A stretch of 64,000 nucleotides of DNA. It comes from Eledone cirrhosa (lineage: Eukaryota). Location of the stretch: assembly GCA_964016885.1 (NCBI GenBank), contig OZ024762.1:14632001-14696000 (forward strand), in the 5' to 3' direction. This document shows positions 21,402-25,148 of the stretch, one piece after another. Made by a program: the position numbers and the translations under genes. The notes under the pieces were generated by a model, which saw nothing but the letters and a program-made list of their open reading frames with translations, had not been told where the DNA came from and ran no database searches. How positions within the stretch are numbered: the stretch's first letter is position 1; each line of letters begins with the position of its first letter.

Positions 21402-21479
21402 CCTGTTTTATCTGATGAAAACACAAATATTATTGCATGATGATATTTGTTTTTGAAATGCGCATAATAAAATACATGG
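21402..21479 (+). ncRNA. Minimal type I hammerhead ribozyme, family H1
   Basis: TTTTAT-CTGATGA-stem II (AAACACAAATAT/ATATTTGTTTTT)-GAAA-TGCGCA-TA^-ATAAAA; stem I pairs, stem III region ATGCGCAT is palindromic; predicted cut after 21466. Confidence 0.75.
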
Positions 21480-21699
21480 AACTCCTTTAACCATCTTTTG
21501 TTCTTATATATTATATATATATATATATATATATATATATATACACACACACACATAAACATACATTACACCCACACAATTAACTACCGAGGTTAGCTTT
21601 TGCCTTTCATCCTTACTGGGTCGATAAAATAAAGTACCAGTGATGCACTGGGGGAGATTTGATCGTTTTTGGTCTGATTATACAAATTAGTACCCCCTT

Positions 21700-22095
21700 T
21701 TCCGGGTACTATTATAAGTGATGGTCATGAATCTTGAATAAGGACCGAAAGAATTTCATCGCGAATACAAGCGGCCAAAATATGGGTTCCTCCGAGGTGT
21801 AGCTTAGAGGGTCACTCCAGGTGGAGCTGCTACTTTTCCGAATAGAGAGATCACAGCTCTGATACTATGGACATGTGGTTAGAATGTCTCAGGTAAGAAT
21901 CACTGGACAGATTTTAAGGGCAAAACCAACCAGCAAGAGACCCAGGAGTAACCCCGAGCAAGATGGTTGTATAACATCCAGGAGCTTGGCTGGTCTTGTT
22001 TAGGGATCCAACCGGATCAGTTGGAGACGGTTGCTTCTGACAGGAGTCGCTTGAAAGAATGTTTTAGGGACTTGGCCTCCCACGGCCCTCTCAAG
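21700..22095 (+). mobile_element. Decayed 3' part of an RTE-clade LINE with (AAG)n tail
   Basis: Disrupted translation includes SRIQAA, LLFRIERSQL, YGHVVRM, KPTSKRPR; followed by (AAG)n. Confidence 0.72.
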
Positions 22096-22835
22096 AAGAA
22101 GAAGAAGAAGAAAAAGAAAAAGAAAAAAGAAGAAGAAGAAGAACAACAACAACAAGAGTATATAATCCCTTCGATTATGTAATTCCTGATAAACACAGCT
22201 GATAAAGGACCCAATTAAAGGACCCCAGTTTTTTTTTTAGCTATTTAAAATATATTTTTGGGGGGAAATATGTATATTTGCTATGTCTACTTGGCTATAT
22301 AACAAACATTTGTACATTTATTTTTCTTTAATACAAATTTTACGCAGTTTCGTATGGAGGGTGTATATAGAGGTAATTTTATGGTAAAGTTCGGCGCACA
22401 ATTATACACACACACGCATACATATATATATATACACACACACAATGAGTCTGTGCAAACACTTGCTTTGCTGAAACATTGTAGCTATGTTGTGGGTTTG
22501 AATGAATATATATATCCCGTCCCTTATGATTTGAACACGTGTATGTATATATCTGTGTTTGTCTCTCTTGTGTGTGTATATATAACAATATATATATATA
22601 TATATATTCTGTGTGTGTGTATGTGTGTGTGTGTATATATATATATATATATATACACACACATATACATACATACAGGGTGTCCCCCAAAAATATATAC
22701 ACAGGCAAATGCTGTTGAAGTGTGTATACATTTTTTGGGACACACACACACACACCCTGTATATATATAATATGCTTAAAATGCCGTATGTCAATACGGC
22801 ACCTCTATGAGCGAGTATACGTATATATATATATA

Positions 22836-22995
22836 TAATATAGAAATGGCTTCTACTGGACTAGAACTGTTTCATTCGGGAGAAATCATCAGGGCTTCCA
22901 GATGATTTCTCCCGAATGAAACAGTCCTAGTCCTGTAGAAGCCATTTCTATATTAAATATTTATACTCTGCTATGTATTATTGAGTACCTTACTT
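22836..22995. mobile_element. Fold-back repeat family P3 (arms of about 55 bp)
   Basis: AATATAGAAATGGCTTCTAC...AAATCATC / GATGATTT...GTAGAAGCCATTTCTATATT; related pieces near 20300, 20470, 43900, 46000, 46260. Confidence 0.72.
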
Positions 22996-23214
22996 CTTTC
23001 CTCTTTCTTCAGTAATTTAAATTGTTTTAACAGTTATATTGATGCCAAGTATTTTTTAAGCTGTCTCACACGCACCCTCTCTATTGTATGTATTATATAT
23101 TTTTCTCATGCTCTCAATATTAAGGTATATAGATATTGAGTTTTGTCATATATTACTCACTACCATGACTGAATCTTAACCATCTACTATGTCAGGGTAT
23201 GTCATGCACCATCT

Positions 23215-23281
23215 TATTTTATCTGATGAGGACGTACTGTTGAAGTTAACTCAGTACCTCTGAAATATGTATAATAAAATA
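23215..23281 (+). ncRNA. Minimal type I hammerhead ribozyme, family H2
   Basis: TATTTTAT-CTGATGA-GGACGTACTG/CAGTACCTCT-GAAA-TATGTA-TA^-ATAAAATA; 8-bp perfect stem I; predicted cut after 23273. Confidence 0.75.
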
Positions 23282-23848
23282 TACTTGATCACAAGAATAT
23301 CTATTTTGTTAATATTTGAATATATATATATATATATATATATAAAGAGAGAGATGGGGGAGAGGGGGGGACAAAAGGGAAGAGAGGGAGAGAGAAAGAG
23401 AGCGAGAGAGAAAGAGGGAATGAGAGAGATTATTAAACAGTTTAAGCTAAATTAGCGGCGGCCTGCTTTCAAAAGCTTAGTACACGCGTACCGGAGTGGC
23501 CCGCAATATAGGCTGTGCTACACGCCCACCTATATATACCTGTAGGGTGCTGTGTGTGTGGGTGTGTGTATGGGGAGGGGTGGGTTACGTGTCCCATCCA
23601 TGCCACCATCATCATCATCTTCATATGCACTTAACAATACAGTCACACTTACATAACATATCGTTTGTATATCTGTATATGCATATATACACTTTTTGGG
23701 ACACCCTCTGTGTGTGTATATATATATACACAAATGTATATATATATATATATATATATATATATATATATATATATATATATATATATATATATATATA
23801 TATACATATACACATATATATATATATATACATATATATACTTACACA

Positions 23849-23950
23849 CAGGGTGTCCCCCCAACATCGTATACCCACTTCAACAGCATTCTAATAAATA
23901 TTGCCTGTACAGGTAATCAAAGTGCGTACACATTTTTGAGGGACACACTG
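23849..23950. mobile_element. Tc1/mariner-type MITE copy
   Basis: CAGGGTGTCCC...GGGACACACTG|TA with the shared internal CATTCTAATAAATATTGCCTGTACAG. Confidence 0.75.
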
Positions 23951-24185
23951 TATATATATATATATATGTGTGTGTGTGTGTGTGTGTGTGTGTGTGTGTG
24001 TGTGTGTGTGTGTGTGTGTGTGTGTGTGTGTGTGTGTGTGTGTGTGTGTGTGTGTGTGTGTGTGTGTGTGTGTGTGTGTGTGTGCAGATACACACACTCA
24101 CATGTCCCAGAAGCGTTCTGTATCCAACTATCATACCCAAAATCGTGCGTTGAAGCACTGTTTCAGCAAAGCAAGTGTTTGCACA

Positions 24186-24450
24186 GACCCGGGCCGAAAC
24201 AAATGAGATCGTGTAGGTGTCACGACAAAAAAAAACACAGTCCACGCTGTAATGTGGCCGTGTAGGCAACACGGTAAAAACCTCCCAGCCCCACACTGTA
24301 AATGTGGTTGGTGTTAGGAAGGGCATCCAGCCGTAGAAAACCCGCCAGACAGTCCTATGCGAGCAGGACAACAAATCTTGCCTCAAGTGGGAAAACTCCC
24401 GTCCAAACCCATGCAAGCGTGGAAGATGGACGTTAAACGATGATGATGAT
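24186..24450 (+). mobile_element. SINE-like family C, unamplified copy
   Basis: Single copy of the segment arrayed at 5538-7910, with (GAT)n tail. Confidence 0.8.
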
Positions 24451-24880
24451 TATATATATATATATATATATATATATATATATATATATATATATATATA
24501 TATATATATATATATATATACATGTCTGTGTGTGTATAATAGTGCGCCGAACTTTACCATAAAATTACCTCTATATACACACTCCATACGATATTAACTT
24601 TATGCCGACATTCATACAAATATATATATATATATATATATATATATATATATATATATATATTATATATATATATATAATATATATATATATATATATA
24701 TATATAATATATATATATATATATATATATATATATATATAATATATATATATATATATATGTAGAAGTTCTATTACAACAAGCAAATATTTTTTATAAC
24801 TGATATAAAGCACTCAACAAATTATTGGAGTAAAAATACGATATATTAACAAATGGAAACTATATTTATAAAACCATATT

Positions 24881-24945
24881 TATTTCATTATACATATTTC
24901 AAGGACACCAAGTTAAATTATGGTGTGCTTTCATCAGATAAAATA
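24881..24945 (-). ncRNA. Minimal type I hammerhead ribozyme, family H3 (left arm of fold-back)
   Basis: Exact reverse complement of 25084-25148. Confidence 0.75.
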
Positions 24946-25083
24946 TAATATAGAGCAGTTTTATAAATAAATAAATATTGACATACCCTTAAAGAATGCG
25001 ACCATGTCTGTTGGAAGCTCCCAGGAGCTTCCAACAGATATGGTCGCATTCTTTAAGGGTATGTATAAAACTGATCTATATTA

Positions 25084-25148
25084 TATTTTATCTGATGAAA
25101 GCACACCATAATTTAACTTGGTGTCCTTGAAATATGTATAATGAAATA
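25084..25148 (+). ncRNA. Minimal type I hammerhead ribozyme, family H3 (right arm of fold-back)
   Basis: TATTTTAT-CTGATGA-AAGCACACCA/TGGTGTCCTT-GAAA-TATGTA-TA^-ATGAAATA; predicted cut after 25140. Confidence 0.75.

Follow-up and report, generated by a model that had tools for sequence, protein, structure and literature searches.

The 64,000-nucleotide stretch of the Eledone cirrhosa genome analysed here (contig OZ024762.1, positions 14,632,001 to 14,696,000 of the forward strand; hereafter the window) contains short segments with the core of a hammerhead ribozyme, which had been noticed from the letters alone in an earlier note (the original prediction) and fall into three families, H1, H2 and H3. 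By their sequence, the carriers of H1-H3 are Penelope-like elements (PLEs) of the Hydra clade, the hammerheads sit in the terminal repeats (pLTRs) of these elements, and two predicted bulged hairpins with covarying stems lie downstream of the ribozyme across the clade. The hammerhead is a known arrangement with one distinctive feature, a fixed mismatch in stem II, and the hairpin module, which lies outside the coordinates of the original prediction, is the more testable lead. Our explanation of the whole, to which we give a probability of roughly 0.7, is that these are Penelope pLTR hammerheads whose cleavage would depend on dimers or on protein, and that the uncut RNA would be copied from points just 5' of the twin hairpins.

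The carrier can be recognised from the open reading frames (ORFs) joined to the hammerheads elsewhere in the genome. At locus L092 an H1 hammerhead, an ORF of 798 amino acids and a second hammerhead 3,709 bp on follow each other, and L091 has the same arrangement with 3,334 bp between the hammerheads and one frame break. H2 lies directly downstream of reverse transcriptase (RT) and GIY-YIG endonuclease (EN) pieces in L102 and of EN in L099, and the end of an EN is found 1.4 kb upstream of H3 in L028. The 798-residue ORF has DKT at residue 123 in place of DKG (DKT also occurs in the ORF of L096) and a CxCx5C linker from residue 657; it has no CCHH motif, and CxxC and CxH flank the conserved E and N. 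DKT and CxCx5C define the Hydra clade of Craig et al. 2021 (PMC8557442), thus the elements are assigned to that clade, and by eye the H1 ORF can be aligned over its full length with the published Hydra proteins. The Neptune clade, at first suggested by the cysteine linker, is ruled out by the same two motifs, since Neptune elements have DKG, CX2-5CxxC and CCHH. The Cys/His pattern of the endonuclease is visible by eye in the EN pieces of H1, H2, H3/H4 and H5, and the N-terminal RWK position reads RWI in H1 and MWR in an H3-type ORF. Pfam searches with three ORFs and sequence searches of the PDB gave no match, and the Pfam GIY-YIG domain was matched in 2 of 30 aligned relatives and not in the ORF itself; the predicted structure of the 798-residue ORF (predicted local distance difference test, pLDDT, 83) has TERT as its best structural match. 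The RT of the other families is about 54–55% identical to that of H1, so by sequence H1, H2 and H3 are three related families of one lineage and not independent solutions.

The likeness to the Hydra clade extends to the single ORF with RT and C-terminal GIY-YIG, the (TA)n targets, the hammerhead near the 3' end, the inverted 5'-truncated copies and the tail at one end (PMC8557442), and pLTRs, inverted 5'-truncated copies and a one-end tail, which are general PLE features, are all present here. In 174 of 182 copies the cut site is followed by (TA)n within 260 nt. The units measure 3.3–3.7 kb, and the tails are about 90 nt long, against 30–40 in the Hydra clade (PMC8557442). As a separate observation, residues 579-653 of the L092 ORF form an asparagine-rich disordered linker between the RT thumb and the endonuclease, and inserts like this have been described in rotifer elements (PMC3846280).

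As to the ribozyme, the core CTGANGA..GAAA is matched 14 times in the window, where 0.72 matches are expected and none of 100 shuffles gets to 14. Seven of the matches are the copies already named (21412, 23223, 25092 and 49773 on the + strand; 24897, 49983 and 63300 on the - strand), and alignment recovered the mutated copy at 52870, in which core C3 is changed to U and the first stem II pair is A x C, together with an extra H3 piece at 63424-63594 that is 5'-truncated and is without the first core half. One base in the 5' arm of stem I is changed in each of the copies at 49765 and 63284. The H1 hammerhead occupies 21404-21474 (+), with the core at 21412-21418, stem II at 21419-21454, GAAA at 21455-21458, an 8-nt palindrome at 21458-21465 and a predicted cut after 21466. 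H2 is found at 23215-23281 (+) and H3 at 25084-25148 (+), with predicted cuts after 23273 and 25140, respectively, so all three cut positions had been counted correctly, and the fourth pair of stem II is C x U in H1 and C x C in H2 and H3, the pyrimidine mismatch that had been predicted. The stem II of 10–12 bp described for all families does not hold for H1, in which 15–16 positions are able to pair. With CUGANGA, GAAA, UH, a three-way junction and covarying stems I–III, the three families have the predicted fold of type I hammerheads, and the palindromic stem III is of the dimer type, as had been recognised. The H1 palindrome duplex is calculated at -10.5 kcal/mol and the two-copy fold gives the active dimer form; these energetics fit a dimer-acting hammerhead, and cleavage is predicted. 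The members of the inverted H3 pair (25084-25148 and 24881-24945) are on opposite strands, therefore they could not form a dimer within one transcript. Rfam searches of five short stretches found no hammerhead with E allowed up to 10, and for the whole window there was no hammerhead among the 150 of 403 matches listed; these scans returned microsatellite and small nucleolar RNA noise only.

The mismatch is fixed in the lineage. A descriptor scan of the collected genome loci gave 203 hammerheads with distinct flanks, 182 of which have an A-U-rich palindrome of 8 or 10 nt and 21 of which are of other types. Pair 4 is unpaired in 179 of the 182 (paired in 3) and pairs 2, 3, 5, 6 and 7 are paired in 176–182, whereas pair 4 is paired in all 21 of the others. 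Among 17 variants hand-picked to span the families, 12 of 19 pairs are changed on both sides and none of 500 shuffles matches the observed pairing or covariation, which bears out the covariation claimed at first; slid registers drop to 30–59% paired. All 17 have pair 4 unpaired, 16 of them with C as its 5' base, and the neighbouring pairs covary; the letters of the catalytic core, the triplet U and the palindrome are invariant or compensated throughout. The set takes in family H5, whose EN region is 35–44% identical to that of H1, and an EN tree with unnamed relatives groups the variant lineage with weak support (93/52). As an outside control, hammerheads were found in 43 of 77 metagenome loci with related ORFs. 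An isolated pair-4 mismatch occurs in none of the 46 distinct metagenome hammerheads of these related elements; many of the 46 have stems of 7–11 bp and two have an AUA site, so that a long stem II is common in other Hydra-like elements also. Beside this, the third base of the stem I 5' arm is U in 17/17 variants, opposite A or G, with varying neighbours, and is a candidate partner of the mismatch. In stem II of family H6, pairs 4 and 11 are both C x C and pair 1 is U x U, and H5 (L134-L153) has stem III palindromes of both 8 nt and 10 nt, a natural test of palindrome length. Other hammerhead types, with pair 4 fully paired, are present in L025 (1947+/1867-), L029 (2439+), L074, L101, L001 (89+), L007 and L039, some of which resemble published Hydra forms.

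Compared with published hammerheads, long helix II and palindromic helix III are already in print (PMC4209133), where hammerheads with the same core are predicted to act as dimers, and the Drosophila willistoni hammerhead of that paper (Fig. S3) shares the 8-nt palindrome, the AUA site and the A-U first pair. Most of the others there have one base more after A9 and begin stem II with G-C, and an isolated pair-4 mismatch appears only in single examples (Clonorchis 2, Strongylocentrotus 1), never fixed family-wide. In the hammerhead table of PMC8557442, as available, no Hydra row of the 26 has both a long stem II and a pair-4 mismatch within it, and G precedes the cut-triplet U in every one. Because the long helix II, the palindromic helix III and AUA with an A-U pair are published, the mismatch is the sole new hammerhead feature, and the undescribed subtype that had been suggested is reduced to this one distinctive trait. 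A literature search for the stem II mismatch or the twin hairpin, with subscription papers outside its coverage, turned up nothing relevant. Lunse, Weinberg and Breaker (2017) reportedly described about 150,000 PLE-associated hammerheads with short stem III that cleave as dimers, and the pair-4 variant may already be among their alignments. The fixed mismatch offers a single-base test of packing in long-stemmed dimer hammerheads, and tens of thousands of such motifs in one animal genome are missed by Rfam and by descriptors that require a perfect stem II.

The second part of the module is located in the tail. The motif GAG(C/T)(A/G)CT is present in the tails of all six families of this genome, and of the 46 metagenome cores 33 have it within 170 nt, where 0.08 would be expected in a stretch of this length; two copies were seen in 24 of 60 loosely matched cores, a set that includes false cores and contig ends and in which two or three of the second copies are part of adjacent insertions. 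A predicted hairpin with a 2-nt bulge has this motif as its 3' arm, and the partner arm was found in 56 of 59 distinct instances. The first inner pair is kept in 56/56 (C-G in 33, U-A in 21, one U-G and one G-C) and the outer pair in 53/56, and at least two inner pairs form in 35 of the 59 instances, compared with a mean of 1.1 and a maximum of 5 after shuffling; the pairs were counted by script since MAFFT left the tail hairpins out of register. Moreover, in the six families the outer pair of hairpin 1 has gone from G-C to A-U on both sides. The 3' ends of the copies fall at +40–55 or at +130–150 nt past the cut site in six family groups, in a scan that was blind to ends at the cut site itself, and they stand 4–9 nt before the foot of hairpin 1 (H1, H3, H5 and H6), despite differing loop lengths, or 4–9 nt before the foot of hairpin 2 (in H1, in H6 and, judged by eye, in the L096 read-through of H3 type). 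The published Hydra-1_Ajap consensus (PMC8557442) also shows two such motifs, and the available text of that paper does not mention the twin hairpin. The two points at which reverse transcription starts, and from which the Penelope 'tail' results, are likely determined by the hairpins. In Poseidon PAc of the green anole (Frangieh et al. 2024, PMC11167929), two internal RT starts likewise define the tail, the uncut RNA is a template in vitro, the hammerhead needs protein and the protein is predicted to be a dimer; on the other hand, PAc belongs to another clade, its starts are found within the ORF, in a single AC-rich stem-loop, and the available text describes no repeated hairpin signal.

It could also be that the twin hairpins act on DNA, in endonuclease recognition or in the resolution of an intermediate, and are not RNA start signals. 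The tail has been attributed to EN-mediated resolution (PMC8557442), the Drosophila tail is cited as required for EN recognition (PMC11167929), and the hairpins are too weak to show in RNA folding. We consider this unlikely, since the ends keep a fixed distance from the 5' foot of the hairpin while the loop length varies, the stem tolerates G-U pairs, and in the related element tail ends were mapped directly to RT starts (PMC11167929). Apart from these families, bulged tail hairpins are also seen in other repeats of the window at 5230-5259, 15339-15371, 30042-30068, 45538-45564 (+) and 62946-62966 (-), and this points to further Hydra-like families in the window.

The copy ends also bear on which RNA is copied. 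The high copy number that had been expected was found: in the 3.0-Gb genome a degenerate 21-base pattern for the 3' half is matched 86,552 times, truncated and decayed copies included, and exact matches number 2,473 for an H3 61-mer, 4,049 for an H2 30-mer and 11,579 for an H1 30-mer through the cut site, with 0 in the reversed-pattern controls. The flanks of 30 copies per family show ragged 5' ends, inverted partners and (TA)n outside. In a direct search a single H1 copy ended at the cut site into (TA)n, compared with the 11,579 exact 30-mers that span this site. The junction of pLTR and ORF is represented by 214 exact 24-mers in the genome; among 30 copies examined, two of which could not be mapped, 22 of the 28 mapped continue across the hammerhead upstream, and one begins precisely at the cut. 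Cut-site junctions (about 152 x 11/30) show no clear excess over those at a control position 8 nt away (118 x 9/30). Since the copies do not stop at the cut site and do not begin there with any preference, the template is probably RNA that has not been cut. Furthermore, the 5' ends cluster before the cut at -115 to -125 in H1 (8/30), -109 to -126 in H2 (9/30) and -129 to -136 in H3 (7/30), and H2 has a TATA-like run about 30 nt before TCACT, an arrangement described for a rotifer pLTR (PMC3846280). The 55 rows of inverted pairs, a few of which are duplicates or unrelated neighbours, comprise 37 long+short, 5 short+short, no long+long and 13 unclassified pairs. Contigs of two sequencing runs of undefined kind gave nothing usable on ends or splicing. 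In L211, a direct and an inverted piece both begin at or next to the predicted cut site, possibly a trace of a cut template.

An alternative put forward in the discussion of PMC4209133 is a rolling circle, in which the hammerhead makes unit-length RNA, the cut and re-ligated circle is the template, and RT circles it more than once. This would fit the tandem units, whose hammerheads are separated by 3,334 and 3,709 bp, and also the non-coding unit of family H6, and as a circle restores the cut site, the missing ends there are no objection. A circle has no 5' end, yet in three families the 5' ends accumulate at a single position, and ribozyme mutants left insertion unaffected in vitro in a related element (PMC11167929), so we regard it as quite improbable. 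The H6 unit (L172, G000 C1 about 92.822-92.823 Mb; L175) is 1.26 kb long between two hammerheads, has only a short EN-like remnant and gives 505 exact 24-mer matches.

It is still less probable, and in our view very doubtful, that the fold no longer cuts and is kept, mismatch included, as a structural or protein-binding signal. The odd first pair, the AU-rich stems, the weak dimer of H2 and H3 and the lack of an excess of copy ends at the cut site would agree with this; the invariant or compensated core, triplet U and palindrome do not, and published relatives cleave weakly as dimers (PMC4209133). That the copies are independent non-LTR (long terminal repeat) retrozymes or elements like short interspersed elements (SINEs), for which one could adduce that full-length junction copies are few and most copies short and non-coding, is almost certainly wrong, as it is contradicted by the ORF-linked copies, each family being contiguous with its own ORF, by the absence of short tandem arrays in the window and by ends and inversions of the Penelope-like type. 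The published non-LTR retrozymes (PMC7229834; bioRxiv 10.64898/2026.07.22.740005) also have type I hammerheads in animal repeats and are related to pLTRs, but they are short non-coding tandem arrays, whereas H1-H3 are dispersed ends of coding elements and H6 alone is non-coding. Of the two kinds of element that the original prediction had named as known carriers of such hammerheads, the Penelope-like elements apply here and the retrozymes do not.

Several points weigh against the dimer-dependent hammerhead and hairpin-primed copying that we prefer. In stem II the usual G-C first pair is replaced by A-U, G-U or a mismatch; the palindrome duplex of H2 and H3 is weak (-2.2 kcal/mol) and their two-copy folds are without the active dimer, which only H1 has; and single-sequence folding, with z from -0.4 to -2.3, is unremarkable and fails to predict the hairpins of the tail. 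The copy counts are biased, as part of stem II was fixed by the search patterns, and the 17 variants share common ancestry, seven being known from one copy each. Hairpin 2 could be seen for H1, the H3-type and H6 only, in read-through copies from the same genome, and not for H2 or H5. In addition, the 5' hotspots adjoin short palindromes, and template switching could explain them instead of a start site.

On the preferred explanation, transcription would start in the pLTR about 115–135 nt before the cut site, and a lone hammerhead near the 5' end of the RNA would have a stem III too weak for cutting, so that cleavage would likely occur only as dimers or with help of the element's protein. Two copies might pair via the palindrome in tandem pLTR-ORF-pLTR transcripts or in trans, and dimer cleavage would process the transcript or cap its life. 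We take the C x Y mismatch as a probable hinge or docking point, by which the long stem II would pack against a long stem I or the protein. We assume that the protein, perhaps as a dimer, binds the hairpins and nicks both (TA)n strands, and that one cDNA would be primed 4–9 nt before each hairpin, one per target strand. Most cDNAs would run off the nearby 5' end of the RNA or truncate, and the outcome would be ribozyme-bearing stubs of 170–290 bp and the inverted long+short pairs of the window. We see an even chance that hammerhead and two hairpins form a three-part RNA module, in which each hairpin places one RT start per target strand, and that the mismatch of the lineage marks a new tertiary or protein contact. 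A covarying hairpin 4–9 nt from each element end is a direct handle on how PLEs, the retrotransposons closest to telomerase, choose the start of copying and on what purpose their hammerheads serve, as it could be broken, repaired and moved in an existing in vitro assay; if the three-part module is real, it would account, as the underlying sequence signal, for the Penelope 'tail' and for insertions of the inverted long+short type.

In the window the H1, H2 and H3 pieces are truncated element ends only, inserted in (TA)n, and no ORF remnant of the carrier element was found there. The H1 insertion consists of an inverted long end with the tail at 21233-21327 (-), which abuts (TA)n, is 98% identical to the tail of the full H1 unit in L092 and contains hairpin 1 at 21287-21314 (-; ACTC...TA bulge-GAGT-GCT), and of a short pLTR fragment at 21343-21505 (+), which begins at the H1 5'-end hotspot and is followed by (TA)n. 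The H2 fragment at 22994-23320 (+), 92% identical to L102, is a short 3' end followed by (TA)n, and a second H2 end lies at 49707-49873 (+; hammerhead 49765-49830). The H3 pair is made up of an inverted long form with tail at 24762-25022 (-; hairpin 1 at 24809-24831) and a direct short form at 25021-25191 (+). Another short H3 end, with (TA)n on either side, is located at 49926-50107 (-; hammerhead 49967-50031), and a long one at 52790-53063 (+) has the mutated and probably inactive hammerhead (52870-52934) and a tail hairpin with one change (52982-53004). At the far end of the window an inverted short H3 form (63244-63423, -; hammerhead 63284-63348) adjoins the direct long form at 63424-63594 (+), which is truncated inside stem II and has hairpin 1 at 63512-63534. 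A separate, classical minimal hammerhead core is found at 40993-41020 (+), with an extra base after A9, a 4-bp stem II, a GUC site and a decayed stem I; it probably belongs to another Penelope-like family, and a similar copy is present in L095 at 9198. Near-perfect fold-back repeats of about 110 bp beside (TA)n (22843-22958, 3235-3347, 45742-45853, 48962-49082 and 29927-30036) are possibly inverted truncated ends of other such elements. Finally, a SINE-like repeat family of 200 bp is represented at 2578-2778 and about 14 more places, for example 13082-13261, 44649-44855 and 49243-49442.

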